Part shown: one piece after another, positions 1-14,081 of the stretch
How the letters are laid out: each line of letters starts with the position of its first letter
Numbering within the stretch: the first letter of the stretch is position 1
Source: an uncultured Methanosarcinaceae archaeon
Lineage (GTDB): Archaea; Halobacteriota; Methanosarcinia; Methanosarcinales; Methanosarcinaceae
Reading direction: 5' to 3'
DNA: 14,081 nucleotides
Assembly: GCA_963733675.1 (NCBI GenBank)
Contig: CAVTET010000002.1
Coordinates: 1 to 14,081, forward strand
Made by a program: the position numbers and the translations under genes
The notes under the pieces: generated by a model
What the model saw: the letters and a program-made list of their open reading frames with translations, nothing else
The model's database searches: none
Told to the model about the DNA's origin: nothing

Positions 1-197
1 AAAGCTGTGCATAAAATGACTATCAACATTCAAATTTTAATTTAGGATACTGGTAAGTTAAGCATTAAACTGCTACCAGAGAATCTAGGAAATCTTTTAC
101 ACTGTTGGTAGGTTATTAAAAGCAATAATTATTAATTTGTACTTTTTGTGCAATTCAAACCTATCATCTATACCAAGAAACTTTATGAGATAGTAAG

Positions 198-329
198 ATG
201 GAACTCGACGAAGTAATAATCACAAGGGCAATTTTTGATGAGTATTCGAAAACCTTTCTTGATTACACAGATATTGATGTGGCACTTGTAGGAGGCGGGC
301 CTGCAAATCTGGTTTTTGATAGGTTCTAA
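198..329 (+). pseudogene. thi4: 5' fragment (first ~39 codons) of sulfide-dependent adenosine diphosphate thiazole synthase Thi4
   Basis: Hand translation from ATG 198 gives MELDEVIITRAIFDEYSKTFLDYTDIDVALVGGGPANLV-FDRF* (TAA 327-329). It matches the recognisable archaeal Thi4 N-terminus with the Rossmann DV-x-x-VGGGP motif. Similarity stops at about 314. Too short for the ORF track. Confidence 0.85.
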
Positions 330-631
330 TGTCTTTAAAAACTTTACTAGTCAGTTTGATAATTGGTTTCTTGTTTGTGTTACTTGGTTTAGGGATGTTA
401 ATAGAACGTGAATTTTATGGAGCATGGGGTATTGGTCCAAGTTTTAAATAAATTAATCATTACGGAATCCTAAAAAAGTCGGACCGAAATAGAAAAACTA
501 CTAAACAAAGAAGACAGCAACGGGGCTTCAGTTCCAAATTGAGTGATACCAAAGATTTAAAATAATTATATTATGAATCTATATTTGTGCACATCTACAT
601 AATGTTGATTTAAGTATTAAATTGGAGAATT

Positions 632-2884
632 ATGACTATTTCTGATCGTCTGTGTTTCGATGACGTAGAGATTAGAGTCCGAGAACGGACAGCTGAGTTG
701 GAAAAAGCCAATCAGGCATTACGCACCGAAATTCTAGAATACAAGAACGCTGAGAATGAGCTAATTGAACTTAAGGATAAATCCAAAGCTGAAATAATGC
801 GCAGATGCGATCGTATTCTTGAAGGAATCAGTAAAATCTTCAGCATTGCATTGCAGGCCAAAACAGAAGAAGAGCTGGGATATGAGTGCCTATCGGTAGC
901 CTTAGAAGTGACAGGTAGTCAAATTGGTTTCGTTTCTTTAATGGGTGATGACGGGCTACTGCACGATATTGCAATTAAAGACGTGGGATGGGAATCTTGT
1001 GGGATACATGACAAGACTGGGTATCGCCGTCCCCCGGAAAATTTTGTCATGCATGGCTTGTATGGTAGTATCATTAACAGCAATAGAAAAGGCTTTTTTA
1101 CTAATGATCTACCGTCGCATCCCGACAGCATCGGCCTATCCCATTTCTATCCCCAGCTTCAATCGTTTCTTGGCATGCCCCTATCCTTGGATGGTAAAAT
1201 AAAGGGCTTGCTTGCGGTTGCAAACCGTGACGGTGGTTATAGTGAAGAGCAGCAGACGGATCTTGTAGCTATCATGCCAGTGATTGTGGAAGCTCTTCAG
1301 AGACAAAGGTCGGAAGAGGATCTTAGTGAAGCTTATGAGAATCTCCAGGTGCAATCCGAGGAGTTGAATGTTCAGTCTGAAGAACTGCGGATGCAAAACG
1401 TGGAGTTGCAGATTAAATCAGAGGAACTTCGTGCAGCATATGAAGTTACGCTGGAGAGCGAGAAATGGTTCCGTATTATGGCTAACGCGATCCCACAGTT
1501 AACTTGGATCGCACATCCTGATGGCTATATCTATTGGTATAATGAACGCTGGTACTCTTACACCGGTACCACACTTGAGCAGATGGAAGGTTGGAGTTGG
1601 CAGAGTGTTCATGATCCAGAAGTGCTGCCCAAGGTACTGGAGCAGTGGAAGGCTTCGCTTGCTACTGGACAAGTGTTTGATATGGAGTTTCCTTTGCGCG
1701 GCGCTGATGGCACTTTCCGCTCGTTCCTAACGCGCGTTTTGCCCTTGAAAGATGCTGCAGGAAACATCCTTCAGTGGTTTGGGACAAGTACAGACGTCAC
1801 CGAGCGCAAAAAAGCTGAAGAAAAAATTCAAACCTTAGCGAATATTGTGAAATCATCAAGTGATGCTATCCTTACTTTATCCCTTGATGGTATTATTACT
1901 ATCTGGAATAAGGGTGCTGAGCAGATTTATGGTTATTTGGCTGAGGAAGTTGTGGGAAAAAGCGTATCAATGCTCGCACCCGATGATCTCAAAAGTGAAA
2001 CAAAAAAGCTAATTGAAAAGGTTAAGCTGGGAGAAAAGATCCAGCACTATATAACTTCAAGGTTAAGAAAAGATGATAAGTTAATATATGTTTCAATGGC
2101 TCTTTCTCCTGTTTTTGATGCATCTAAAAAGCTTGTGGCTATCTCGGCTGTTACTAGAGATATTACTCAAAAAATGGAGGCCGAAAAATCTTTATTAAAA
2201 GCTGAAATAACCAGAAAACAAGAGCTCCATCATAGAATCAAAAACAATTTGCAGGTGATCTCTTCTCTACTGGATCTTCAAGCTGATAAATTTAAAAATA
2301 GAAAGTTTATTAAAAATTTTGAAATTTTGGAAGCTTTCAGAGAAAGCCAAGATAGAGTTATATCTATGGCTCTTATTCATGAGGAATTATACAAACATAA
2401 ACAATTAGAAACTTTGGAATTCTCGGCATACATTCGAAAACTGGTTAAAAAACTTTTCCAGACTTACATACTAAATAGCAAAAATATTCATCTGCATATG
2501 GACCTGGAAGAAAATGTATTCTTAAATATGGATGACGCAGTTCCTTTGGGAATAATTATCACTGAACTGGTTTCAAACTCTCTTAAACATGCATTTTCAG
2601 GGAGAGATGAAGGGAGAATTTATATCAAACTAAGTAGAGAAAAAAACGGAGAACGTATAAATAACAGAGAAGACGGCAAATATGAAGGTTGTAATATTAC
2701 AGGTTTAATTTTGAAGGTTGCAGACGATGGAGTAGGTATACCTGAAAGTATCGATTTAGAAAATCCCAACAGTCTTGGCATACAGTTGGTAACTGTCCTA
2801 GTAGATCAGTTAGATGGAGAACTTGAGCTGAAAAGGAGTAATGAGACGGAATTCACTATTAAGTTCACAGTAACAAAAAAATAA
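632..2884 (+). CDS. Soluble GAF-PAS-PAS sensor histidine kinase (HisKA_2 family)
   Basis: N-terminal helix VRERTAELEKAN; GAF (SFLGMPL...GLLAVANRDGGYSEE); heptad linker; PAS (WYNERWYSYTG...VHDPE...WFGTSTDVTERK); second PAS (IWNKGAEQIYGY...RDIT); H-box ELHHRIKNNLQVISSLL; N-box ELVSNSLKHAF; G1 VADDGVG; G2 SLGIQLV. GGAG lies just upstream of the ATG. Confidence 0.95.
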   Translation: MTISDRLCFDDVEIRVRERTAELEKANQALRTEILEYKNAENELIELKDKSKAEIMRRCDRILEGISKIFSIALQAKTEEELGYECLSVALEVTGSQIGFVSLMGDDGLLHDIAIKDVGWESCGIHDKTGYRRPPENFVMHGLYGSIINSNRKGFFTNDLPSHPDSIGLSHFYPQLQSFLGMPLSLDGKIKGLLAVANRDGGYSEEQQTDLVAIMPVIVEALQRQRSEEDLSEAYENLQVQSEELNVQSEELRMQNVELQIKSEELRAAYEVTLESEKWFRIMANAIPQLTWIAHPDGYIYWYNERWYSYTGTTLEQMEGWSWQSVHDPEVLPKVLEQWKASLATGQVFDMEFPLRGADGTFRSFLTRVLPLKDAAGNILQWFGTSTDVTERKKAEEKIQTLANIVKSSSDAILTLSLDGIITIWNKGAEQIYGYLAEEVVGKSVSMLAPDDLKSETKKLIEKVKLGEKIQHYITSRLRKDDKLIYVSMALSPVFDASKKLVAISAVTRDITQKMEAEKSLLKAEITRKQELHHRIKNNLQVISSLLDLQADKFKNRKFIKNFEILEAFRESQDRVISMALIHEELYKHKQLETLEFSAYIRKLVKKLFQTYILNSKNIHLHMDLEENVFLNMDDAVPLGIIITELVSNSLKHAFSGRDEGRIYIKLSREKNGERINNREDGKYEGCNITGLILKVADDGVGIPESIDLENPNSLGIQLVTVLVDQLDGELELKRSNETEFTIKFTVTKK

Positions 2885-3520
2885 AAAAGGATCAACTAAT
2901 GCAAGATACATAACTTTTATAGCAAAGACTATGCATTGAAATATCAATTTTGAAAGCCTACTCATTGGCCCATAACACTGTTTTTGTGATGAAGGATGCT
3001 GCGTTAATCCCAATTTCTGTATTTTCCTTCATCATGAAAATTTAGTTCTGTATCAACTACCTAGTATAAAATTATCGTATTTACTGATGCAGAAGTTTTC
3101 ATACAAAACCTGCACATCTCAGGGTCAAGATAATTTAAGTATTTGAACCAAAACTATATTGCTGCTCAGTAATTTTATCATGAAATCAAAATACTCGCAG
3201 TACTTATTTCTCCCCATGTTGCTTTGTATCCTGTCTGATCTGCTTCTTTCTGGCATTTTAGATGAATCTGATCCTATAAGCCAATTAATAAAATAGGAAA
3301 AGTAACAAAAAACTACTATATTTTTAATAGTATTTTGTGGATTTGTTACAGATCCTGAATATAAAAGTTAAAATGTATAGTTATTTATTCAAGTGCTGAC
3401 AGTGAAATTTATAATTATTGATCTTACTGTTGAAAATGCACTAAACTCAAAAAAGATATGTAAAATTGTGTAATCCAAAATCCATATCTTTATGATTAAA
3501 GTTTGACTGCTTTATTTATT

Positions 3521-3832
3521 TTAATACATAGCTAATAGAAATCGATCATTTGATTCAGGGTCTACTAATTCTTGATAAAATTTATCTAATTTGCTAAAGA
3601 AATTACTAAATTTTCCTGGTTGTTTATATTTAATCATGATTTCATTGGCTAATTCTAAATCAGCTAATATTGCTTCTCTCCTTACAATAGTATATGATCC
3701 TATTTTCCTATTAGGAAATGTGTGATTTTCTATTGTTTTTTTTACAAAGTAGTGTTCATCTTCGGAAGCCACTTCAAATAATATATCGTGATCGAAAAAG
3801 TGTTTTAAAAGCAAGTCATTTTCTGAGAGCAT
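3521..3832 (-). pseudogene. Hypothetical protein, probably a C-terminal remnant
   Basis: 103-aa AT-rich ORF with protein-like composition. The frame stays open to about 3847 (TALDY before the M), where it meets the helicase remnant back-to-back with no room for a promoter. No family recognised. Confidence 0.4.
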
Positions 3833-5025
3833 ATAATCTAATGCGGTCTATCATGACAACCCCTTCAGAGATCTACAAATTAGGACTGCCAGTACAATAC
3901 TCAATCAGTGATTTCAAAAGATTGTGCAAGGACTTTGGAGAATGGAAAAATGAGAACAATAAAATAGAATTTTCCGATATGATTGACCTTGTAATTAAAA
4001 ATGAACTAATTCCTAATGGGAAAGTTCAGATCTATGACGAAGCCCAAGACATGACTCCCCAAATGTACACAGTTGCAAAAGTATGGTCAGAAGGAGCAGA
4101 CAGGGTATTTTTAGCAGGGGACCATTTGCAGACATTGTATACATATAGTGGAGCAGAACCGAAATTATTCTTAGACTGGGGAGGAGAGCTCGAGATATTG
4201 CCAGAAAGCAAACGATTAACGAAAGACATATGGGCGATTGCAAGCGATATTATAAAGAAAAATACCCCTTACAATGCCCCACAAATCAAGACGCGTTCAG
4301 AGACGGGCAATGTAAAACAGATCAATCATACAAATCTTGAATCTTATTTGTTAAAATGCCCACATGATGCTGAAACATTTCACCTAGTACGAACTAACTA
4401 CCTATGGGGAGAGGTAGCAGAGATTCTTGCTAGATGTGGGGTTCCTTTCAGTGGAATTACAAGATACTCATGGACACAAAGCGAGCGTAATCTATACAAT
4501 GCGATTCAATCAATTCGGATATTCAGACAATTAACAAAATCCGAATTTTGTGCATTATTGGATTATTATCCTGCAAGATTAACGGGAGCTCCAAGCAACC
4601 CAAGAGATGTAGCAGATTACAAAGCAGACATTGAAGCGAGAGCTAGTATCCCAACAATGACCAAATTAAATCCTAATCTTATAGAATCGATAAAAACTGA
4701 AGACCCGCTTAAACTGTCAAATATTAAAAAAGGATTAACAAGGCTGAAGATAGAAGGAGCATTCCGAAGGGGGCTGCTAAGAATATCAGCAAATGATGTG
4801 AGCATGGTCAAAATTCTCACAATTCATGGGTCAAAAGGAATGCAAGCAACAAATGTATTTTTACACACCGGAATTACAAGAGCGATCGATCAGGGAATGC
4901 TGACAAAAAAAGGTAGGGAAAACGAAGCTTTTGTTTGGTATGTCGGAGTTACAAGGACATATAACAATTTGGTATTTGTGTCATATCCAGGCTGTCAATA
5001 TCAAATATCAGGGGTATGTACTTGA
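3718..5025 (+). CDS. UvrD/Rep-like superfamily 1 DNA helicase, N-terminally truncated (no Walker A); real coding sequence probably starts about 3830-3860
   Basis: SF1 motifs II QIYDEAQD, III LAGDHLQTLYTYSGA, IV LPESKRL, IVa LVRTN, V TIHGSKGMQ and VI YVGVTRT are present. No GxxGxGKT was seen in any upstream frame. The first ~38 aa overlap the antisense ORF 3521-3832. Confidence 0.85.
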   Translation: MCDFLLFFLQSSVHLRKPLQIIYRDRKSVLKASHFLRAYNLMRSIMTTPSEIYKLGLPVQYSISDFKRLCKDFGEWKNENNKIEFSDMIDLVIKNELIPNGKVQIYDEAQDMTPQMYTVAKVWSEGADRVFLAGDHLQTLYTYSGAEPKLFLDWGGELEILPESKRLTKDIWAIASDIIKKNTPYNAPQIKTRSETGNVKQINHTNLESYLLKCPHDAETFHLVRTNYLWGEVAEILARCGVPFSGITRYSWTQSERNLYNAIQSIRIFRQLTKSEFCALLDYYPARLTGAPSNPRDVADYKADIEARASIPTMTKLNPNLIESIKTEDPLKLSNIKKGLTRLKIEGAFRRGLLRISANDVSMVKILTIHGSKGMQATNVFLHTGITRAIDQGMLTKKGRENEAFVWYVGVTRTYNNLVFVSYPGCQYQISGVCT

Positions 5026-6335
5026 CTAAGACAATGGAGATAACGGCAACTGAAGAAACCATTTTACATTATCTAAACCCGCTGATAAAGGAAACAATTA
5101 TCAGAGTATCGAATTATGGGAACTGCAAAAGATGGGCTAACGGAGATCGATTCCACTGGTACAGTGATTATGAAAAACAGCCTATACCGATGACGGACAA
5201 GTATTATGACGAGTTGGTAAAAAAGCACCGTACCTTATATAGCACACTCTCACTGTTCAACAAAAATGTGTTTGGGCTAGAATTCCGGAACCTGACATCA
5301 GACGAAAAAAAGAATATAAGCAAGCAGTATGTTGAGAAATATACATTAGGGATTGATATTGATACAGTGGACGAAGTCAAAGGACACGGTATTAACATTC
5401 AGGAACCTAAAGTAAAGGAAGCAGTTGAAGCAGCTGCACAGTGGTACGTAGATAAGTTCAGAAAATTTGCTCCAAATTCAGTATATTGTTTGTTCTCTGG
5501 TGGCGGGATTTACGTACTGTTACACCATGAAGTCTTAAAGGATTATTTTGAACGAATTGGTTTTGGTGGGAAGGAAGATTATATCAAGCTTATAAAAACG
5601 CTTATAGATACTATTAATGAATTGACTAAGGCATACGAGATAGAATTCTTTAAAAAATATCCAGACTACATAAAATACGTAAAAATTGACCACATTAACG
5701 GTGCAAAATGGATATTTAAAACCATATTCAGCGTTCACAAAACTCATAAATTTGCAGTAATTCCACTAGACCAAAATAATATAAAAATTAAATTTGAAGA
5801 AGCAACAATTCCACTGAAAGAAGAAATAATTAAACGGGGAGCATATTGGTATACAGTTTATGATGATACGAATGATTTTTTGGTAGAACTGTCTCCATAC
5901 CTTCAAAAAATTGAGAAAAAAACGTTAGAACAAGAACGAAAACAATTTACTTCCCCAACTCAATTCAGAGTATCAGATATGAGTCATGATTATGATGAAT
6001 ACCCACCTTGCATAAAACACATATTAGGATTGGATAGATGCGGAGTAGGTGCAACCCGAGCACTCGCGTTTTTAGCATCATTTTTAGGACATATCGAGCA
6101 GGACGCTGATAAAGCATATAATATATGGTCAAAAGTTGCAAAAAGGTGGCATGCGGTAGCTCTGGAATCAAATGTATTTCAATCCCATTATAAAGTCATG
6201 CACTGCGCATCTTGCACAACCTTAAACACCTACAGGGGCGGTTTTCCACACGTGGATATCATAGAAATAGGAGCATGCAAGCCAGATTTAAGATGCCTGC
6301 AAATTAACTCTTCTAACCCTATATATTTATACTGA
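5016..6335 (+). CDS. Single-chain primase: archaeo-eukaryotic primase (PriS-like) catalytic domain fused to a PriL-like [4Fe-4S] C-terminal domain
   Basis: Motif I LGIDID (D114, D116), motif II FSGGGIY, motif III KIDH (D225), then KWIFKTIFSVHKT resembling PriS R-x-x-R-x-P-x-S-x-H-x-K. PriL-CTD-like motifs YPPCIKHIL (C332), FLASFL, SCTTL (C400), ACKPDLRC (C421, C427) and NPIY. Overlaps the helicase stop by 10 nt. Confidence 0.8.
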   Translation: MYLTKTMEITATEETILHYLNPLIKETIIRVSNYGNCKRWANGDRFHWYSDYEKQPIPMTDKYYDELVKKHRTLYSTLSLFNKNVFGLEFRNLTSDEKKNISKQYVEKYTLGIDIDTVDEVKGHGINIQEPKVKEAVEAAAQWYVDKFRKFAPNSVYCLFSGGGIYVLLHHEVLKDYFERIGFGGKEDYIKLIKTLIDTINELTKAYEIEFFKKYPDYIKYVKIDHINGAKWIFKTIFSVHKTHKFAVIPLDQNNIKIKFEEATIPLKEEIIKRGAYWYTVYDDTNDFLVELSPYLQKIEKKTLEQERKQFTSPTQFRVSDMSHDYDEYPPCIKHILGLDRCGVGATRALAFLASFLGHIEQDADKAYNIWSKVAKRWHAVALESNVFQSHYKVMHCASCTTLNTYRGGFPHVDIIEIGACKPDLRCLQINSSNPIYLY

Positions 6336-6396
6336 TAACAAAATGTACATAGAAAAACTCAAAGCTGATTTTCTTGCCAACTAGTTCAAAAATGTT

Positions 6397-6627
6397 TTTG
6401 TAACGGGTATATTCAGCTTTCAGATAGGTAGTTACCCTTAAATTACAGCTATTGATATCGTTTTATACAAAGCAGATATATTTGTAACGGGTATATAATC
6501 ATTTTTTTTTGTTTTTGAAAATATCCGTTACACCCATTACACCCGTTACAAACTAAATTGGTAAGGGCAGATAATATCGTTTTTGGTGTAATGGATTGAG
6601 TACATTTTACCAGTTACACCCGTTACA
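6397..6627. repeat. Iteron-like 9-mer array (TGTAACGGG / CCCGTTACA), candidate replication origin
   Basis: TTTGTAACGGGTATAT occurs exactly at 6397-6412 and 6481-6496. Opposite-orientation tandem copies are at 6524-6532, 6533-6541, 6542-6550, 6610-6618 and 6619-6627, with a variant TGTAATGGA at 6587-6595. Perfect 12-bp inverted repeat 6481-6492 / 6541-6552 surrounds a T-tract. Confidence 0.8.
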
Positions 6628-6735
6628 TACTCAGAAGCTATAAGATTAATTTCTTGCCATACCTATTATAAACATTTATTAGAATCGTGTCTGTATCCAT
6701 TCAATATCCCCAATAAGTGATTTAAATGATCCTAG

Positions 6736-6872
6736 ATGTCAAAAAGTTGATCTGTGAACTGCAAGTGGGTCAATGCATGCAGCCCATAGAAGGGTTGGTT
6801 GAAAGGTAGGGTAGACCTTTAAACTATGACTCAATTTAAATTAAATATAGTTTTTTTATATATTCTAAATAG
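6736..6872 (-). ncRNA. Conserved structured element copy A (candidate ~90-nt sRNA with TATA-like box and U-tract)
   Basis: Homologous to 9434-9572. ATGTCAAAAAGTTGATCT at 6736-6753; stem CTGCA 6759-6763 / TGCAG 6778-6782; stem AAAGGT 6802-6807 / ACCTTT 6815-6820; conserved AT-rich block 6844-6872. RNA identity and strand are inferred. Confidence 0.5.
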
Positions 6873-6992
6873 CAAAATTCAAACTAAAAAATTATGAAGT
6901 CTTGATTTTATAATACCTATCTAAAAAAAGGAACAATTTTTGGATATCCAGATAAAACCTGGAACCTACTCATTTAATATTGTTATTTTTAT

Positions 6993-8228
6993 TTACTTCT
7001 CAATTGGTAATTTTTTTTCTATCTTATGGTGTTTGAAGTGATTTTTTGATTTATGTTTACTAAAAGGAGCTTTAGTTTTGGAAAAATTTACTTTATCTTT
7101 TAGAACGTTACCACCTATAAACTGCCCGATGGCAACTGGATGTGATCCGACAGTTACATTAGTTATAACCTTGTTTGTGGTTGTGTCGATTACAGAGACA
7201 GTATCATCGTTCCAATTCGCTACATATACCTTTTTTCCCGTTGGGTTGACTGCAACTCCATTAGGTTTTTCTCCTACAGGCACTGTAGCTATAACTTTGT
7301 TTGTTTTAGTGTTAATTACAGATATGGTATTGCTGTCCTCATTTGCCACATATACTTTTTTTCCATCCGGTGTGACTGCAATTCCATAAGGAGACTCTCC
7401 TACCTTTATATCGGTAACGACAGTGTTTGTAGCTGTGTCAATAACAGAGACAATTCCAATAGATGTATTTTCACCATCCGAATTAGTTACATAGATTTTT
7501 GTTCCCACTGGATTGACTGCAATTCCCTTAGGAAATAATCCGCTTACATGTACTGAAGCTTTAATAGTATTAGTGGACGTATTAATTACAATTACGTCGT
7601 CGTTGTCATAGCACGTTACATAGACTTTTTTCTCATCCGGACTTACTACAATTCCATAAGGCTCACCTGATAATGGTATAGTGTTTGTAACTTCATTTGT
7701 CGCAGTGTCAATAACAGAAGCACTTCCTCCCTTTAGTCCTCCATTATTCGCTACATAAACTTTTTTTCCACTTGGACTGACTGCAACTCCATAAGGAGTT
7801 GTGTCCTTTCCTACATTCACACGATCTATTTCCTCATTTGTAGTTTTGTTAATTATAGATGCAGTTCCATCATGGTCGCTCATCAAACATATTCTCTCAG
7901 TTGGACCAGCTACAAGTCCATAAGGATATGCCAGCCCCCCTACAGATATATTGGCTGTAACCTTGTTTGTGTCTGTGTCTATTACGGAAACGGTGTCTAC
8001 CCAATCCGTTACATAAACTTTTTTCCCGTATGTGGTAGCTGCAACTCCATATCCCCCTATATTTACAGTGGCTGTAACTTTATCTGTTGCTGTATCAATT
8101 ACCGATACATTGTTGCTGCCTTCATTCGTAATATAAGCAAAGGGCGTTGCAGATGTGATACTTATCAGCACTAAAATAATAAATGCTGACATCAAGGCTA
8201 TTGAAAATAACTTACGTATACTTATCAT
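6993..8228 (-). CDS. Secreted YVTN-family beta-propeller repeat surface protein
   Basis: Signal peptide (MISIRKLFSIALMSAFIILVLISITSA), eight ~40-aa repeats of the VYVAN...VSVIDTATN.V...I.VG..P.GIAV.P.GKK type, closing GQFIG motif and a K/H-rich tail. Confidence 0.95.
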   Translation of the reverse strand: MISIRKLFSIALMSAFIILVLISITSATPFAYITNEGSNNVSVIDTATDKVTATVNIGGYGVAATTYGKKVYVTDWVDTVSVIDTDTNKVTANISVGGLAYPYGLVAGPTERICLMSDHDGTASIINKTTNEEIDRVNVGKDTTPYGVAVSPSGKKVYVANNGGLKGGSASVIDTATNEVTNTIPLSGEPYGIVVSPDEKKVYVTCYDNDDVIVINTSTNTIKASVHVSGLFPKGIAVNPVGTKIYVTNSDGENTSIGIVSVIDTATNTVVTDIKVGESPYGIAVTPDGKKVYVANEDSNTISVINTKTNKVIATVPVGEKPNGVAVNPTGKKVYVANWNDDTVSVIDTTTNKVITNVTVGSHPVAIGQFIGGNVLKDKVNFSKTKAPFSKHKSKNHFKHHKIEKKLPIEK

Positions 8229-8281
8229 GTATTTTCCCCCTTTTCTAGACCTAAATTTAAAAAATTATTATATGTTCCATT

Positions 8282-9063
8282 TTGTATAGAATATTTATCA
8301 ATCTGCTGGTTCAGAAGTATCAGTCCGTGGGGGGTATTTTTAAACAATTGCCGGGAAACAATCATGTTAAATTCAATTGCATATTGTTTCAGACAGTTGC
8401 CAGTATAGACAGGGAAAAAGCAGAAAGATTAGATCAAGAATGGAGAGAAAACGGGGGACGATGTCCCCTGATAGCTGAAGACACGGAAGACATCAAAATA
8501 CATAAGAAGACAAACAAAGATGACTTCTGTATAAACGATTTCAGTAGCAACGATAATAATATAGTCTATATAAATAAAGATATCAGAAGACAAGAAATAA
8601 AAGAGAAGATAGGAGAACAGAATTATACTCCCAATTTAGAATACCCCCCAGCAGTTGTAAATAATGAACAAGAAAAAGATGAAAAAATATTTTCTTACAA
8701 GTAAATGGAAAAAGTCTGTCTTCTGGTGAAATTCAGGGAAAAGTGTGCCAACAGCTATCGAAAAGCAGAATACAAACTGATTGTCTTTCGGTGTCTTCTG
8801 ATGTCTTCACTACCCCTAATTTGTCTTCTGAAGCAATTGTAGACACTGATGAACAAAGACATGTTGATAATTCAGATTTAGCTCCGCTACTTAGAAAAGC
8901 ATTAAACAAACTTGCTAACTCTAATGAATATAATGGTGTAGTAGAAGACATAGACGCTTTTGTAAGTGTATTTAACGAAAGGACCCCTTAATACAAAATA
9001 CGGTTTGGCCAGTGGGCGGTATTATATAACGCAGAAAAACAGAAAGCTAGGGATTGGAAGTAA
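8282..9063 (+). pseudogene. Degraded C-terminal remnant of a probable mobile-element replication protein
   Basis: ORFs 8282-8704 and 8743-8991 join through a frameshift near the A6 run at 8682-8687 (...EKDEK/NIFLQVNGKSLSSGEIQGKVCQQ...). Reading through TAA 8989-8991 continues as YKIRFGQWAVLYNAEKQKARDWK* (TAA 9061-9063). The replication role is inferred only from the internal repeats and context. Confidence 0.55.
8477..8950. repeat. Intragenic convergent heptamer array GAAGACA / TGTCTTC, candidate second origin
   Basis: GAAGACA at 8477, 8486, 8506, 8586 and 8944. TGTCTTC at 8717, 8792, 8802 and 8822. Variants TGACTTC at 8521 and TGTCTTT at 8782. Confidence 0.7.
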
Positions 9064-9067
9064 TAGT

Positions 9068-9122
9068 CCTAGATATTAAAAAGTTGACCTTATAAGTTGT
9101 AGGGATTTTCACCCTACAGCTT
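9068..9122. repeat. Conserved structured element copy B (motif plus first hairpin only)
   Basis: CCTAGATATTAAAAAGTTGACCT (9068-9090) versus CCTAGATGTCAAAAAGTTGATCT (6731-6753) is 20/23 identical. It is followed by an 11-bp stem AAGTTGTAGGG 9094-9104 / CCCTACAGCTT 9112-9122 and starts 4 nt after the stop at 9063. Confidence 0.7.
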
Positions 9123-9433
9123 GCGCACTTATCTACTTTGATGATATATGGGATGCTGTTGCAAATATAATTAAATTTAGTAAATTATATACTTTTGCTA
9201 ATATATTATTCGAATCTAAATGATTTAGTATTAACATTAGTGGTTCTTATTTCAGAATTATGGTAGATACATCCTTTCTAGGCAATCGATGACTACATCT
9301 CAACCCCAAAAGCATGTTTACACTTCCTGTAATAGGAGAATTGCATTTAATTCCTGAAAATGCCTAGATTGTCCCGCAATCGATCTTTTTATGCTTTATT
9401 TAATTGGTGTAGGTGAACAGGCGCAAATCTGAA

Positions 9434-9572
9434 ATGTCAAAAAAGTTGATCTTGTAGCCGCAGGTGTCAGCTGCCTGCAGCCTGTTGGAGAATCTATTGC
9501 AAGGTACTGGAATACCTATACTATATAACAAGATTTAATTAATAATATACTTTTTGCATATATACTATATAG
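9434..9572 (-). ncRNA. Conserved structured element copy C (candidate ~90-nt sRNA)
   Basis: ATGTCAAAAAAGTTGATCT at 9434-9452; stem GCCGCAGG 9457-9464 / CCTGCAGC 9474-9481; stem AGGTA 9502-9506 / TACCT 9513-9517. Block 9544-9572 matches 6844-6872 at 24/29 nt. Confidence 0.5.
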
Positions 9573-9955
9573 TCTAGTTTTGAATAAATAGTATAGAACA
9601 TAAGTGAAAACCTAGCTAAAAACCAAATGGATTATCCCCCTTTACTTTATTTATATCTGATAAAAGTGATAAAAACATATAAAAAATATCGAGAACCTAC
9701 CCAAAGTTCTGATTATGTACGAGCCTGGGGAATTGAATTGGTCAAAAGAACGACTTAATCTGAGCTCACTAGTGAGACTTTTATTAAAAGTTCAATGAAT
9801 TAATCATTGCCTTTCCAAAAAAATGGTCCACCGAGCCTGAGAATGGCGTATTGTGGATTTGACGTGTATAACCCATTTCCATACAGAACAAAATGAACTA
9901 AATGTTCAAATATAATACTGATTAATATTAATTATAAAGTAAAAACGGTGATAAT

Positions 9956-10386
9956 ATGGCTCGTCCTTCGAAACTGACTCCTGATATACAAAAAAGAATT
10001 GGCGATAATATTGCTTTAGGACACACATACCGGTTGGCTGCAGAATCAGTTGGTGTCACATATAAAACATTCAATGAATATATGAACAGGGGACAGACAG
10101 AGAAATCTGGGAAATATTTCCAGTTTTATAAATATATTCAAAAATGCAATGCTGATGCCGCAAAAGTTCTTTTGAACGCATAAACGAAGCAGCCAAAAAT
10201 GGTAACATGCAAATGTGTACTTGGATACTTGAACGCCGTTTTGCGTCAGACTTTGGACGCCGGGTCTATAAGAAAACAAATATTGTATCTGATAATCAAA
10301 ATGTGAGTGTTGAGATAGCATTCAATGATGCAGATGGCATTAGGGCACAAATTATAGAGAAGTTTGCATTGGGCAGAGATAATTAA
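9956..10386 (+). pseudogene. Frameshifted phage terminase-small-subunit-like HTH protein (~143 aa when repaired)
   Basis: MARPSKLTPDIQKRI...AAESVGVTYKTFNEYMNRG forms an HTH. After a 1-nt deletion at about 10170-10173 the other frame continues ERINEAAKNGNMQMCTWILERRFASDFGRRVYKK...FALGRDN* (TAA 10384-10386). The W-x-LERR-x(4)-FGR motif is typical of TerS-like HTH proteins. Confidence 0.7.
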
Positions 10387-10421
10387 AAATTTTTTATTCT
10401 ATTGTGTAATTATAACGGGAG

Positions 10422-10760
10422 TTACCAAAATCGCCACCATGGTTTCTTTGCTCCCGGAGCTTCAATTGTTTTTTGATTTAGGATAGTTTGAACTTGTATC
10501 ATATAGTTATTATGGATACTTTTTAAATCATCTATTTCTTTTCTCAAAAACTCAATTTCGATCTGCTGTTCCTGTATCCGACCATTGTCCGGCGCTGTCT
10601 GGCAGTTGTCGCACGGATCATTTGCTCTGATTAATAAGTCTAGCCCTTTGATTATAGCTTCTGTCGGACTATCATACCCCAGTTGTCGCACAGATTCAAG
10701 AGTTATAACTGAGATGCGAACACTTATCTTACGTTTCTCATCTGCCATATTATCTGGCAT
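10422..10760 (-). CDS. Small DNA-binding protein: ribbon-helix-helix N-terminus, coiled coil and amphipathic KKPWWRFW tail
   Basis: Alternating beta-strand KRKISVRIS followed by two helices (ITLESVRQLG; SPTEAIIKGLDLL); coiled coil QEQQIEIEFLRKEIDDLKSIHNN; C-terminus IEAPGAKKPWWRFW. Confidence 0.75.
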   Translation of the reverse strand: MPDNMADEKRKISVRISVITLESVRQLGYDSPTEAIIKGLDLLIRANDPCDNCQTAPDNGRIQEQQIEIEFLRKEIDDLKSIHNNYMIQVQTILNQKTIEAPGAKKPWWRFW

Positions 10761-10828
10761 ATGTCAGGCATTTAATATAAAGTGTCGCACGTTATTTGGA
10801 AAGAATATTATGTCCGAAACGGTCCGGC
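10586..10828. repeat. TGTCNGGC / TGTCGCAC octamer repeats inside and upstream of the RHH gene
   Basis: TGTCCGGC 10586, TGTCTGGC 10596, TGTCGCAC 10607, TGTCGGAC 10662, TGTCGCAC 10684, TATCTGGC 10751, TGTCAGGC 10762, TGTCGCAC 10783, TGTCCGAA 10811, GGTCCGGC 10821. Confidence 0.65.
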
Positions 10829-10882
10829 ACGGTAATGCCAATTGAAAAGTTGATTTTTATAAGAAAACCGTGTCGATCTCAG

Positions 10883-10963
10883 ACTCATGGAGCTTTTGGA
10901 CCTCATGGAGCTTATGGAACTCCTAAAACATCTGGAGCTCCTGGAACACTTGGAACTAATTAA
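10883..10963 (+). repeat. Eight degenerate 9-bp tandem repeats encoding a collagen-like Gly-X-Y 3' gene remnant
   Basis: actcatgga gcttttgga cctcatgga gcttatgga actcctaaa acatctgga gctcctgga acacttgga. One frame reads H-GAF-GPH-GAY-GTP-KTS-GAP-GTL-GTN* (TAA 10961-10963). Confidence 0.65.
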
Positions 10964-11232
10964 CCCAAACACCCATTGTAAATAGAAAAATAAAGAAATA
11001 ATAATTATATAGTACTCAAAACAAAATTAAAAATACGAATAAACGAAATCAAAACTCAATTTTTCAATACTTTAGTCTCAATTAATAAATTTCTAATAAA
11101 TTCTCTATCTCTTTACTTTCAATGAGAACTAATTTTTTAATGTGTCTTGATGCTGTTTACGTCAATATATCTGAATATTAGTTGAATAGCAACCGTTCAT
11201 CACAAATCAGAATTTTTTAGGGAGCTACACAA

Positions 11233-12249
11233 ATGTTCCAGACTGAACCTACAATTTGCCTCCAACACCTTGGAAACCAATTTTTTACACATCTAATGCA
11301 GCAAATAACTCAAATGGGATATCCCTCGTCAATAGTGCCCATCATAGTTATAGCTATTTTTGGCATTGATTTTAAAAAAAGTTTTCTTCTGTTTCAGCTA
11401 TTTATGTGGACAGACCTGGTTACCGATATTCTAAAAATATTAGTCGGATTTCCAAGGCCTTATTATGTGGATAAAAGGGTCATTAACCTAGAAAATAACA
11501 TAACAAGTACATCGAGTTTTAGTGGGAATAGAATAAAAGGCATTTTTGCTCTTCCTGACAACCAGATTCTTAACACATTTCGTCTTCAAGAAGCTTTTAA
11601 ACCTGGTTCTCTTGGTTTTCCTTCAGGGCACGTGTCGCTTACAACCGCACTATGGGGAGGGGATGCAACTGTTTTCAACAATCGGTTAATCAAAATATTA
11701 ACTCCTTTCGCAATGGTATTGATGGCATTTTCAAGAGTATACCTAGGGAAACATTTCATAGGAGATGTTGTAGGTGGAGCTATTGTCGGATTAATTTCCA
11801 TAGTAGTTTTTGCGTATTTCCTGAAAAGCTCTCTGAGACAAGATTTTTTTAAAAAAGAGAGTTTTGAATTGGCTTTCAGACATGAGAATTTATTTTTTTA
11901 CTGTTTTATGTTCGTTATTCCTATTATACTCATAGCATTCTCTCTGATAGGCTCTCATCCTTTAAACACTGATATGGGATATTTACTTGGCATGAATGTC
12001 ACATATCTCCTTATTATGAGAAAAGGAATACCAGATGACACCGGAACTGCGGGACAGCGGGCTACACGGGTGTTTATCGCGCTCCTGCTGTTTGAAGTGC
12101 CAAAAATAATTCTCAGCTGCGTGTTTTGTACAAATTACTTATTTGCAATAGAATTTCTGAAAACCTTCATTCCTGCATCTACAATCTGGGTTTCGGTAGT
12201 CATCTGCGAAAAATTTAACCTATATAAAAGAAATGAAGAAAGTTTATGA
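11233..12249 (+). CDS. Membrane PAP2-family phosphatase (phosphoesterase)
   Basis: C1 KILVGFPRP, C2 GFPSGH and C3 SRVYLGKHFIGDVVGG motifs, several transmembrane segments, and GGGAG upstream of the ATG. Confidence 0.93.
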   Translation: MFQTEPTICLQHLGNQFFTHLMQQITQMGYPSSIVPIIVIAIFGIDFKKSFLLFQLFMWTDLVTDILKILVGFPRPYYVDKRVINLENNITSTSSFSGNRIKGIFALPDNQILNTFRLQEAFKPGSLGFPSGHVSLTTALWGGDATVFNNRLIKILTPFAMVLMAFSRVYLGKHFIGDVVGGAIVGLISIVVFAYFLKSSLRQDFFKKESFELAFRHENLFFYCFMFVIPIILIAFSLIGSHPLNTDMGYLLGMNVTYLLIMRKGIPDDTGTAGQRATRVFIALLLFEVPKIILSCVFCTNYLFAIEFLKTFIPASTIWVSVVICEKFNLYKRNEESL

Positions 12250-12823
12250 GTAAGCCAGTTGACTTAACTTCAAAGTGCTGTGGAATGCAAAGCAAATGCA
12301 TGTTGTGGGTTGTATAGAAAAAATATCGGATTTCAAAGAAACTAAATAAAAAAGTTTATAATGTACTAGACCAAATATTGTTTTGTCGAACAGACAAACA
12401 AATCCTCATACAGTAAATTCGATACTGTTGATGTGTTAGCATAGCAGTATTAATCTCTCCAAATTCATAATACACTTTGATTTCCATAATAGTTAATTTT
12501 TGCAACGTAAGACCCATCCCCATGATGGACTCTATATCATTTTTTTGCCACACAAACAGAGTCCAGAGTCAATGAGTAGGATAACAAAGCTGGTATTCTA
12601 ATGCAGAGTTTTTGCTATAAAACCTATGTATCAGTGAAAGCAATACAGGAGCTTTATCAATACCATAATTAACTTATCTCCTTCTTTTGAAACAAAAAAA
12701 CCGAGTTATCATTTTTTTCCCGAACTTTGAGTACACCGATTTCTTGTACTTTAATACTTGAAATGTAGGATGATATAAAAAAGAAATAATAATTTCCTGC
12801 ATATACACTAAAAAGGTGTAGAA

Positions 12824-12982
12824 ATGAAAGCTGGAGTTTTAGTTTCTCATATTCTGTTATTAACCACAACACTTTTTTTACTTTTCACAATAGTTCCAGC
12901 AGCTGAATACAAAATAGTTAATATAGAAGTTAATGCAGAGAATAACGAAGGAAATGCTAAAATAGGATTTAATAAAGCTTGA
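12824..12982 (+). CDS. Small (52 aa) signal-peptide-bearing protein
   Basis: MKAGVLVSHILLLTTTLFLLFTIVPAAEYKIVNIEVNAENNEGNAKIGFNKA*. AGGTG RBS-like sequence upstream and a terminator-like hairpin downstream. Not in the ORF track. Confidence 0.5.
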   Translation: MKAGVLVSHILLLTTTLFLLFTIVPAAEYKIVNIEVNAENNEGNAKIGFNKA

Positions 12983-13000
12983 AATGAGCTAAATAATTAA

Positions 13001-13032
13001 AAAGGGGTTATTACAGTTCCCCTTTATTTTTT
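13001..13032. terminator. Hairpin with flanking A/T tracts between convergent small genes
   Basis: AAAGGGG 13001-13007 / CCCCTTT 13019-13025 with an 11-nt loop, followed by ATTTTTT and preceded by an A-run. Confidence 0.55.
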
Positions 13033-13229
13033 GCCGACATTACTTTATGCACTTGTGGGATTTGGTAAGTTCCATTTAATACCTTGGACCTGGTAGATAC
13101 ATTTTATATATCACATAAAAATTTCCATTGGGTGTGGATAGCCAATTTGATTCTTTTCTAGAAGGTTCACCGTGTTTGATGTAATGTCCAGGGAACTGTC
13201 TAGATTTACCATGTAACACATTTTTATAT

Positions 13230-13490
13230 TCAGATTATATAGCTGCCACATCCACCGTATCCGATGCCGTAACCGCAGCTGCCATACCAGGGATATCCAA
13301 AGCCATAGCCCCAGCCGCCATACCAGGGATATCCAAAGCCGTAACCCCAGCCACCGTAGCCACCCCAGCCACCGTAGCCGCCATGGCCCCAATGGGCCGC
13401 CGCGTGCACTAGCTGCAACTGCTGACAAAGATGTTACAAATAAAATGCCAGTAAAATGGCAAGTACCTTTTTCATACTGAGTTTCAACAT
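13230..13490 (-). pseudogene. Gly/Tyr/Trp-rich small secreted protein with two compensating frameshifts
   Basis: GGAG RBS then ATG 13490 (second ATG 13475) gives MLKLSMKKVLAILLA. A shifted frame gives LFVTSLSAVAASARGG. The original frame resumes as HWGHGGYGGWGGYGGWGYGFGYPWYGGWGYGFGYPWYGSCGYGIGYGGCGSYII*. As sequenced there is an in-frame TAA at 13436-13434. Confidence 0.75.
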
Positions 13491-14081
13491 TTATTCCACT
13501 CCTTTTATTATATTTATAAGATAATATTTTTAGCCTTATCTTTGAATCATTGCTCTATCGATTAATAGTGAAACCAAACTTAACCGGCCTGCTAGTAAAA
13601 AGACAAGCATCTTTGTTACTGAGCAGCAATCATTAGTAATGTTTTAATTATATATAAATATTATTAGATTAATAAAAAAATAAATGTAGAAGAGTTCACG
13701 AATGAATCCACACGTTTAAAAAGCGTATTTCTGCATTAAAATGGAAAAAAATAAAGCATCAAATACCCTTCAATAAAATTCAAAAATGTAATTAACAACA
13801 TAATTCCTATAATAACCCACCAGCACTACACTAACTGTGACTATGTGCTGAACCCTCACACTAACCAATGGATTGAAATGCTAATCAATGTGTATAGGCA
13901 CCTATAATATATTCAAGTTTTAAGACCAGCTCCACTTTCAAGACAATGTTTCTAAGCATCTATAAATTCCAATTGGCTCTGTATCACTTTACTTCATCAA
14001 AAAATAGAATCCAGATCCGACAATTATTATTAACACATCTTATGCTTTTTCGTTTTCCTGATGCACAGTTTTTGTGTGTAA

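Follow-up and report, generated by a model that had tools for sequence, protein, structure and literature searches.

Probable remnant of a mobile-element replication module, with an SF1 helicase and a PriL-type primase, in a Methanosarcinales archaeon

The closest described counterparts of the locus reported here are plasmids of the Thermococcales. In pTN2 and pP12-1 a primase-polymerase gene is contiguous with a superfamily 1 (SF1) helicase gene (PMC2926602, PMC3973330), and the pTN2 enzyme, PolpTN2, has been described as a brownish protein that carries a PriS-like domain together with a PriL-like four-cysteine domain (PMC3973330, PMC2926602). The predicted origin of these plasmids is a repeat-rich intergenic region, with direct and inverted repeats, located 5' of the primase-polymerase and helicase genes (PMC2926602, PMC3973330), and an integrase-primase-helicase cassette has been reported from the chromosome of T. 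onnurineus (PMC3543421). Short fusions of a PriS catalytic domain and a PriL iron-sulfur (Fe-S) domain are described from Nanoarchaeota and other DPANN lineages, with the authors' suggestion that such fusions are perhaps frequent in integrative elements (PMC3914693). As a general account has it, PriL is almost exclusive to cellular primases and the primases of mobile elements use PriCT domains (PMC5862659). Here we analyse a stretch of 14,081 bp, referred to as the window, which is the entire contig C2 of the draft genome (3.92 Mb, 15 contigs) of an uncultured Methanosarcinaceae archaeon. Its positions 3817-6655 (2.84 kb), the conserved element block, are read as the remnant of a replication module from a Methanosarcinales element of an integrative, plasmid- or virus-like kind, with a probability of roughly 0.8. 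In the labels used below, C followed by a number denotes a contig of the window's genome (G000), L a locus of a relative and X a sequencing run.

The pairing of helicase and primase is known already from the Thermococcales plasmids, and the Methanosarcinales cassette is a previously undescribed version of it; a literature search, which left out the supplements of PMC2926602, PMC3973330 and PMC3543421, returned no earlier description of the family. An earlier note on this DNA had presented 3841-6627 as an unusual compact replicon. It was right in its identification of the family, wrong about the state of this copy, and overstated the novelty. The block comprises the following features:

3817..5025, plus strand: 5'-truncated SF1 (UvrD/Rep-like, pTN2-type) helicase gene, from profile, protein and nucleotide comparison
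5016..5025, plus strand: 10-nucleotide (nt) overlap of helicase stop and primase start, ATGTACTTGA, from the open reading frame (ORF) calls
5016..6335, plus strand: intact gene of a primase of 439 amino acids (aa), ATG at 5016-5018, with domains resembling an archaeo-eukaryotic primase (AEP) and the C-terminal domain of PriL (PriL-CTD)
6399..6627, no strand assigned: iteron-like array with copies of ACCCGTTACA on both strands
6628..6655, no strand assigned: last 28 nt of the block collinear with relatives

The stop-start overlap had been pointed out before and was found exactly as claimed. The helicase ORF itself runs from 3718 to 5025 on the plus strand with a TGA stop at 5023-5025, and in the part homologous to relatives the first in-frame ATG is at 3841. 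Previously described as a UvrD/SF1 helicase without qualification, it holds only the C-terminal ~75% of one; some 130 N-terminal codons, including Walker A, are gone. In the window ORF, Pfam UvrD-helicase (E 6e-6) covers just profile positions 171-265 of 271 and phrog_1967 'DNA helicase' (E 1e-34) covers positions 316-670 of 776; UvrD_C also matches (E 6e-5), and motif II (DEAQD) and the C-terminal motifs are kept. Helicase relatives numbered 71 database matches, with full-length members of about 513-547 aa, and residues P11, G12, G14, K15 and T16 of the P-loop (consensus GAPGTGKT) were invariant in all 43 full-length relatives (43/43). This Walker A (motif I) P-loop is not present in the window's helicase ORF. 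Credible alignment to the 530-aa relative P0078 (91% identical) begins at its residue ~131, and blastn against three metagenomic relatives (L045, L046 and L048; 92-95% identical) placed the onset of homology exactly at 3817 in 3/3. No remnant of the helicase N-terminus was found 5' of 3817 in any reading frame, nor did the rest of the assembly hold a sequence coding for it, the sole match being a 32%-identical paralogue on contig C7. With homology breaking at 3817 against host DNA and Walker A missing, the window copy is therefore a remnant and not a working replicon.

It is extremely improbable that the break at 3816/3817 is a chimeric join made in assembly. The assembly is a 15-contig draft in which C2 is short and ends in repeats, yet the junction is crossed by Logan contigs from runs X1 and X2, which span 3084-7000 with 0 differences (the runs belong to two studies and are possible source samples, hence not fully independent), and the coding sequence of the missing N-terminus occurs nowhere else in the assembly. 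In run X9, from a third study, two contigs of a relative run on into an intact helicase 5' of 3820, and the codons just 5' of that position read DSISSGTADP, which are the residues of P0078 before the breakpoint. The junction looks genuine.

Window positions 4260-14081 and 5625-14081 recur, 99.9% and 99.7% identical, at the two ends of contig C13 (50 kb; 1-9862 and 41702-50192), where they are inverted and mutually 99.8% identical. The genome has three copies of the remnant (one on C2, two on C13), and each is accompanied by the same non-element flank of at least 7.4 kb. Because this flank is included, the copies point to segmental duplication or assembly redundancy and not to activity of the cassette; the ends of C13 may be a genuine inverted duplication of 8.5 kb or else an artefact of assembly, and read-contig depth, which is flat per contig, gives no copy number. 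These results bear on the earlier reading of 3841-6627 as a complete, compact and functional replicon, which we regard as very unlikely. Both ORFs are open and overlapping with the array 3' of them, the ratio of nonsynonymous to synonymous substitution rates (dN/dS) is not relaxed, and there are three near-identical copies; however, Walker A and ~130 N-terminal residues are missing at a break against host DNA, which leaves the helicase without its ATP-binding loop, a conserved upstream ORF (see below) is gone, and copies with so much common flank from outside the element do not come from cassette replication or transposition.

The primase has a PriS-like AEP catalytic domain at ~aa 10-295 and a PriL-CTD-like four-cysteine domain at ~aa 320-439. 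Residues D114/D116, S161-G164 (S-GGG), H170/H171, D225, K235 and H241 are invariant in alignment A1 (46/46), and by our own reading of the alignment they supply AEP motif I (DxD, D114-I-D116), motif II (SGxGxH-like, S161-G-G-G164...H170-H171) and motif III (hD, D225). Cysteines C332, C400 and C421 are likewise invariant in 46/46, and C427 is present in 40/46 (5 gaps, 1 W); in alignment A2, made from the C-terminal 140 residues, all four are invariant (27/27), with C332 lying within a PPC motif. The motifs and the four cysteines had been proposed in the earlier note and hold up across the family.

The AlphaFold2 model of the whole primase has a mean pLDDT of 90.2. Using VIA-align, the AEP domain matched human Pri1 (8b9d_O; Z 16.6, root-mean-square deviation 3.2, 225 aligned), Prim-PolC (Z 16.6), LigD-Pol (16.3; repair polymerases together 16.6-16.1), Pyrococcus PriS (14.3) and Sulfolobus PriS (1zt2_A; 13.9), and every one of the 13 chains at Z>=8 was an AEP. 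Each Foldseek match in the PDB at E<=1e-3 was also an AEP, and a viral library search returned AEP primases. Profile evidence for PriL came from several sources: Pfam PF04104 matched the window primase at E 1e-3 (18.9 bits; curated cut-off 22.4), and the cut-off is exceeded by relatives (L035 31.7, P0151 31.8 and P0160 30.8 bits); NCBIfam PriL NF002588 matched at E 2.6e-6, yet far under its equivalog cut-off; and against the PDB the family profile picked out yeast PriL (E 3.4e-4), with the PPC cysteine aligned. When the CTD was folded alone, PriX (5of3_C) and yeast PriL-CTD (6di2_A) ranked 1-2 of 48,161 chains, both at Z 6.4, followed by photolyases and human PRIM2; within the whole-protein model the scores were Z 5.8 for PriX and 5.2 for yeast PriL-CTD. 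Of the two folds expected beforehand, the AEP was recovered with confidence, and for the C-terminal half PriX and PriL were top-ranked at modest Z, with no significant Foldseek match. The primase is predicted to be a single-chain protein of AEP and PriL-type Fe-S domains, with the case for the CTD carried by sequence evidence. PHROGs gave no significant family for it, and tblastn against PLSDB plasmids gave no match at E<=1e-3.

One residue sets the window copy apart. Residue 232 (codon 5709-5711), three residues N-terminal of the invariant K235, is Trp in the window and Arg in 45/45 other aligned members. The copy at the left end of C13 encodes an identical primase protein and hence also W232. 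The R232W change may have inactivated the product of the remnant gene.

A word-indexed search returned 77 primase relatives, whose source-given names were all 'hypothetical protein', in agreement with the earlier proposal of a poorly described Methanosarcinales mobile-element family with a single-chain primase. An exhaustive profile search extended the family to 529 representative clusters at E<=1e-3 (259 at E<=1e-10). Among the best 150 representatives, 80 were at least 770 aa with the module N-terminal, 19 were of 400-580 aa, 49 were shorter than 400 aa and 2 fell between size classes. The long forms are proteins of 800-1340 aa with the AEP and PriL-CTD module at their N-terminus; in a sample of 15, five had D5_N and/or DUF5906 and one had DUF3987. 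Both D5_N and DUF5906 are found in L035 (886 aa), and further long forms are L015 (926 aa) and a 1056-aa 'DNA primase' of Caudoviricetes sp. vir515, whose host is given as Methanosarcinales. The D5_N/DUF5906-fused form was seen in Methanosarcinales Caudoviricetes and in Methanothrix contigs, and most primase relatives are fused to D5/SF3-type helicases.

A stand-alone primase with an SF1 helicase directly 5' was found in 13/37 loci from scans of IMG/VR and GTDB, and the same arrangement occurs in L045, L046, L048 and L056, the last from another genome of the genus. The window's own genome contains a paralogous cassette on C7, with a 41%-identical primase and an intact 522-aa helicase directly 5'. 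Helicase and primase ORFs overlap by 1-16 nt in 10/10 loci with both called (window, L045, L046, C7/L050, L027, L021, L028, L024, L019 and L029). In an unrooted maximum-likelihood tree of 33 primase modules, 15/15 SF1-linked rows were separated from 13/13 helicase-fused rows with split support of 98/94, and four stand-alone rows from viral contigs without an adjacent SF1 gene nested on the SF1 side. Rows with fewer than 380 matched residues or with internal stops were excluded from the tree (L018, L020, L029, L037, L039, L041, L043, L044, L047, L048 and L056). The proposed pairing of an SF1 helicase with a single-chain Fe-S primase is thus consistent within one clade, though not unprecedented, given pTN2, pP12-1 and pEXT9a as described. 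Taxon names for 10 stand-alone representatives were Methanosarcina or Methanosarcinales only, where named, and are uninformative on DPANN relatives. A different arrangement was observed in L061 (G051:C1:220253-223609), where the 3' neighbour of a helicase C-terminus is an open frame of 491 aa with one in-frame TAG, whose match to the family profile is confined to the PriL-CTD part (E 2e-16); another N-terminal domain may here be joined to the same Fe-S module.

Comparison with plasmids was made using the intact L045 helicase, which had only 8 matches at >=90% coverage among 72,556 plasmid records (22-25% identity, E 1e-13 to 1e-22), namely five Thermococcus plasmids, pMETVU01 and two haloarchaeal plasmids. 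The best full-length matches were to pIRI48, pEXT9a, pMETVU01, pIRI33, pAMT7 and pCIR10, as ranked by similarity search, and pP12-1 matched across 52% of the query. As described for the pTN2/pEXT9a type, those plasmids resemble the window family in that a PriL-like four-cysteine AEP replicase adjoins or overlaps an SF1 UvrD/Rep-like helicase and a repeat-rich putative origin is present, and integrated, integrase-bearing versions are reported too (T. onnurineus). The gene order is reversed, however: the window family has helicase then primase, whereas the pTN2 type has replicase then helicase, as in pIRI48 and in pMETVU01, where the two overlap. The window-family primase is half the size (439-455 aa versus 671-923 aa), and the PriL N-terminal, PriCT-1 and winged-helix domains of PolpTN2 were not found in the window primase by profile and structure searches. 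The motif-II histidines H170/H171 are invariant in the window family, while PolpTN2 is reportedly without the catalytic histidine. The hosts also differ, in that the window family occurs in mesophilic Methanosarcinales with the elements seen integrated, in contrast to the free plasmids of the pTN2 type. An hhalign comparison of A1 with single pTN2-type replicase sequences gave E 0.017 (pIRI48) and 0.28 (pMETVU01), so that past the AEP motifs it found no significant sequence relationship between the primases.

Two other groups of enzymes share parts of this architecture. The earlier note had stated that cellular archaeal primases are separate PriS and PriL subunits, to which the fused primases of Nanoarchaeota and other DPANN are known exceptions (PMC3914693). 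Those of Nanoarchaeum equitans and other DPANN, as that source describes them, are like the window's in having a PriS catalytic and a PriL Fe-S domain alone in one short chain, a likeness of architecture; they are the cells' own replicative enzymes, whereas the window-type primase is borne by a mobile element. In AEP-D5/SF3 fusions (pRN1 ORF904 type; D5-like), which occur in viruses and plasmids of archaea and bacteria, the helicase is part of the same chain. The window's AEP and PriL-CTD module forms the N-terminus of related 800-1340-aa fusions of this kind, but its own clade is without a fused helicase and has a separate SF1 gene 5' of the primase. Enzymes of the pRN1 type are described as carrying PriCT-1 and not the four-cysteine PriL domain found here (PMC5862659).

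The array begins at 6399, 64 nt past the end of the primase stop (6335), close to the ~60 nt given previously. It is made up of facing repeat groups, not of a plain run of direct-repeat iterons:

6399 and 6483, minus strand: copies of ACCCGTTACA, facing the plus-strand groups
6492-6499, no strand assigned: TATA-like box TATATAAT, between the facing repeat groups
6502-6516, no strand assigned: T-rich tract, 3' of the TATA-like box
6523, 6532 and 6541, plus strand: tandem triplet of ACCCGTTACA with a 9-nt period, from sequence scan
6587, minus strand: degenerate copy of ACCCGTTACA, from sequence scan
6609 and 6618, plus strand: pair of ACCCGTTACA, from sequence scan

Between 6399 and 6627 there are 4 exact copies (two per strand) and 4 copies with 1-2 mismatches. 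Across the 3.92 Mb of the genome there are 12 occurrences of the exact 10-mer, 12/12 within the three copies of the array. The overlap, the primase features and the array pointed out in the earlier note are thus present and not due to chance. GC content falls to 21.7% over 6460-6519, and the TATA-like box and T-rich tract are candidates for a promoter element and a DNA-unwinding element, respectively. Tandem Repeats Finder reported nothing over 6336-6992.

The array is kept in L045, L046 and L048, with a stretch between repeats missing from L048 and one X9 contig. The block collinear with the window ends at 6655 in two relatives, while the third is collinear to 6557 and again over 6614-6655; the relatives' mutual collinearity ends about 35 nt beyond. 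Overall, the window and these three relatives cease to be collinear ~30-70 nt past the last repeat. The more distant L019 (primase 45%, helicase 48% identical) has the same layout directly 3' of its primase gene, with the unit ACCCCGTACA: a minus copy, a TATATA box, a T-tract, three tandem plus copies, a minus copy and two plus copies. All of its units read ACCCCGTAC where those of the window read ACCCGTTAC. Such a concerted change of all units, with the layout retained, is as predicted by co-evolution with a binding protein, and argues that the array is bound by a protein, putatively one encoded by the element, and is most likely an origin and/or operator.

When the 700 nt 3' of the primase were scanned for 9-mers (>=3 copies), only the window clade and L019 had arrays; L027 and L031 had 3-copy k-mers only, and none comparable was found in C7, L008, L021, L022, L024, L025, L028, L029, L009, L010 or L011. 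In a wider scan for at least 4 copies of an 8-mer within 300 nt, an array abutted the cassette in 7/10 SF1-type loci. It lies 3' of the primase in L045 and L019, and in the 130-200-nt gap directly 5' of the helicase in C7/L050, L021, L022, L024 and L028. The order helicase-primase-iteron, thought earlier to be conserved, is therefore specific to the window's clade; the neighbourhood survey upheld linkage to an SF1 helicase in one clade and a frequently abutting array, with the order of genes and array varying. Units are element-specific in C7, L021, L022, L024 and L028 (CCTGTAACA, GTGTAACA, AGACACCAC and AGGGCACA), and a TGTAAC core is common to several of these and to the window's TGTAACGGGT. 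A motif ATA[GT]CGTTTT present in several arrays (window x2, L045, L021, L024 and L027) was too sparse to build on. Directly 3' of the 926-aa fused primase-helicase gene of L015, five ACTACCGG copies lie within 230 nt (12871-13099), and arrays may accompany the fused forms too.

In metatranscriptome run X16, a 385-nt contig of a relative (32 differences, 2 gaps) covers 6343-6721 and is deeper than the helicase and primase contigs. It could hint at a transcript from the TATA-like box of the array, with DNA carry-over also possible.

It is possible, though on the unlikely side, that the array is no origin and serves only as an operator/promoter, as a partition (centromere-like) site or as recombinase arm-type sites where the element ends. 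A TATA-like box does lie within it, and five sister loci have their array together with a TATATAG-like box in the gap of 130-200 nt 5' of the helicase, which is where a promoter or operator would be expected. In addition, the window-clade array is ~30 nt from the end of the relatives' collinearity, L027 encodes a ParB-helix-turn-helix-like protein just 3' of its primase, and the X16 contig lies over the region, the last being a weak indication since RNA libraries can contain DNA. In iteron plasmids, origin and operator roles can coexist. The motif is not found at the left boundary of L045 or L046 and hence is no terminal repeat, and facing repeats around a T-rich tract beside replication genes match the predicted origin layout as described for the pTN2 type (PMC2926602, PMC3543421). 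Taken together, the array is probably an origin that also acts as a promoter/operator.

Intact relatives carry a further conserved ORF of ~207-259 aa just 5' of the helicase (e.g. L050 5990-6616 on C7, L045 7646-8422 and L027 7627-8292), which is absent from the window. Copies from different clades align at 18-24% identity; D, F, P, W, C, G, K, W and F are invariant among them, the C-terminal stretch reads GYKKEGT...R-FWWF, and there was no match in Pfam, NCBIfam or PADLOC. In the ESM Atlas the C7 copy fell with unnamed, mostly viral clusters at a recognition score under the guide value, which makes this a lead only. The ORF is a possible DNA-binding initiator or regulator. Signs of mobility include tyrosine integrases 2-7 kb 5' in L027, L021, L028 and L024, and a patchy distribution, the family being present in 7/201 sampled genomes of the order (6/140 high-quality). 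Loci L021, L027 and L029 lie inside chromosome-scale records.

We see only a slim chance that helicase and primase act together in DNA repair, in tolerance of damage or in defence against phages, and not in replication of the element. The AEP domain does score as high against Prim-PolC and LigD-Pol (16.6-16.1) as against PriS-type chains, and the helicase matches PADLOC models of GajB (Gabija), with best E values of 7e-12 (window fragment) and 8e-27 (C7 paralogue). The GajB models, however, are UvrD-like profiles of a generic kind; PADLOC returned nothing for the primase or the upstream ORF, with no search made for GajA among other neighbouring ORFs. The fusion of the same primase module to D5_N/DUF5906 helicases in Methanosarcinales Caudoviricetes and Methanothrix contigs also speaks against a repair or defence role, as does the PriL Fe-S domain, described as a hallmark of de novo priming (PMC5862659), and the integrases and patchy distribution favour a mobile element.

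Under the reading of 3817-6655 as a mobile-element remnant, the intact module, as seen in relatives, consists of the ~207-259-aa ORF, a ~520-530-aa SF1 helicase of pTN2/pEXT9a type, a ~440-455-aa primase of AEP and PriL-CTD whose gene overlaps the helicase stop, and an array of element-specific 9-10-nt repeats about a TATA-like box and a T-rich tract. A protein encoded by the element would bind the repeats and the T-rich tract would melt, after which the SF1 helicase would unwind the DNA, the primase would lay primers and the host polymerase would extend them in theta replication; the array might additionally act as an autoregulated promoter. The cut at 3816/3817 removed the upstream ORF together with some 130 codons at the 5' end of the helicase gene, leaving a copy unable to drive replication, and the remnant would afterwards have been duplicated along with at least 7.4 kb of host flank, giving three copies at 99.7-99.9% identity. 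The truncation, the domain identities, the gene linkage and the conservation and concerted change of the repeats are direct observations; the role as an origin, the identity of the repeat-binding protein and the enzymatic activities are inferred. More tentatively, and with the odds against it, intact members of ~3.5-4 kb could be self-sufficient minimal theta replicons in mesophilic methanogens, the 9-nt iterons being recognised by the Fe-S primase, the small ORF product or both.

Several observations weigh against this account or parts of it. The structural score of the PriL-CTD (Z 6.4) is modest, the tool itself advising caution below 8; Foldseek gave the isolated CTD no significant match (best E 0.87), and the isolated model is weak (pLDDT 66.7), poorer than the same region in the whole model. 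Relaxed selection on the window primase was looked for by dN/dS and none was detected, with values of 0.11-0.28 between the window copy and relatives and 0.135-0.28 among relatives; therefore the truncation is recent or the decay signal is swamped, and with equal values decay of the primase is not demonstrable. The primase of L044 is frameshifted and has no helicase match 5'. Both C13 copies stop at contig ends inside the helicase or primase gene (window positions 4260 and 5625), 3' of the breakpoint, which is covered in the C2 copy only. No integrase was found within +/-10 kb of the close relatives L045 and L046, and the element may be a plasmid, a virus or a satellite. Finally, by the 8-mer criterion, L029 and L031 were without an array and L027 had weak 2+2 copies only (3/10 SF1-type loci).

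Outside the element, the window holds the following features:

1..3816, no strand assigned: host flank, with no homology to the element's relatives left of 3817
632-2884, plus strand: PAS/GAF histidine kinase gene (Pfam PAS, HisKA_2 and HATPase_c matches)
3521-3832, minus strand: 103-aa ORF of the host flank, with a homologue of its region 3' of paralogous kinase loci on contigs C14 and C3
6993-8228, minus strand: gene of a 411-aa YNCE-like beta-propeller surface protein, adjoining the remnant on its far side
9956-10386, plus strand: broken small gene, whose two ORFs (75 and 59 aa) jointly match one gene in L045 (174 aa) and one on C7 (140 aa)

The beta-propeller protein has a hydrophobic segment at its N-terminus and a lysine/histidine-rich tail, and no counterpart was found in the relatives' loci. 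Past its gene the DNA is mostly non-coding up to the broken gene at 9956-10386, relatives of which are found on most contigs of the genome at 65-75% nucleotide identity, as a dispersed multi-copy family with no Pfam match. Dispersed short repeats lie at 3021-3108 and 12346-12515 of the window, and a ~150-nt repeat unit of L045 (about 7040-7200) has well above 100 copies in the genome, a spread like that of miniature inverted-repeat transposable elements. Rfam (at gathering thresholds) and ARAGORN gave no matches over the window. The interior of C13 encodes a 411-aa Orc1/Cdc6 homologue (10886-12118) and an 808-aa D5_N and DUF5906 (SF3-type) protein (14870-17293) among ordinary metabolic genes, which may represent a second mobile-element remnant or a secondary replicon.

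The window copy is a fossil, and its main value is as a pointer to its family, whose points of interest are a compact Fe-S primase, a swap of SF3 and SF1 helicase partners that tracks the primase tree, and co-evolving iterons. This large unnamed family puts a four-cysteine PriL-type domain on many mobile-element primases and so qualifies the generalisation, as given in PMC5862659, that PriL is nearly exclusive to cellular primases. The split of SF3-fused and SF1-paired states by the tree extends the idea of rep-hel co-evolution, put forward for the plasmids of hyperthermophiles (PMC3543421), to mesophilic methanogens. If the minimal-replicon reading is true, the exchange of modules between a fused SF3 and an operon-linked SF1 helicase would amount to a natural experiment in helicase-primase coupling, and the family would be a mobile-element reservoir of the kind from which, it has been suggested, the short fused primases of DPANN may derive (PMC3914693). 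As a candidate small replicon, an intact cassette plus array could serve in vectors for Methanosarcina or Methanolobus.

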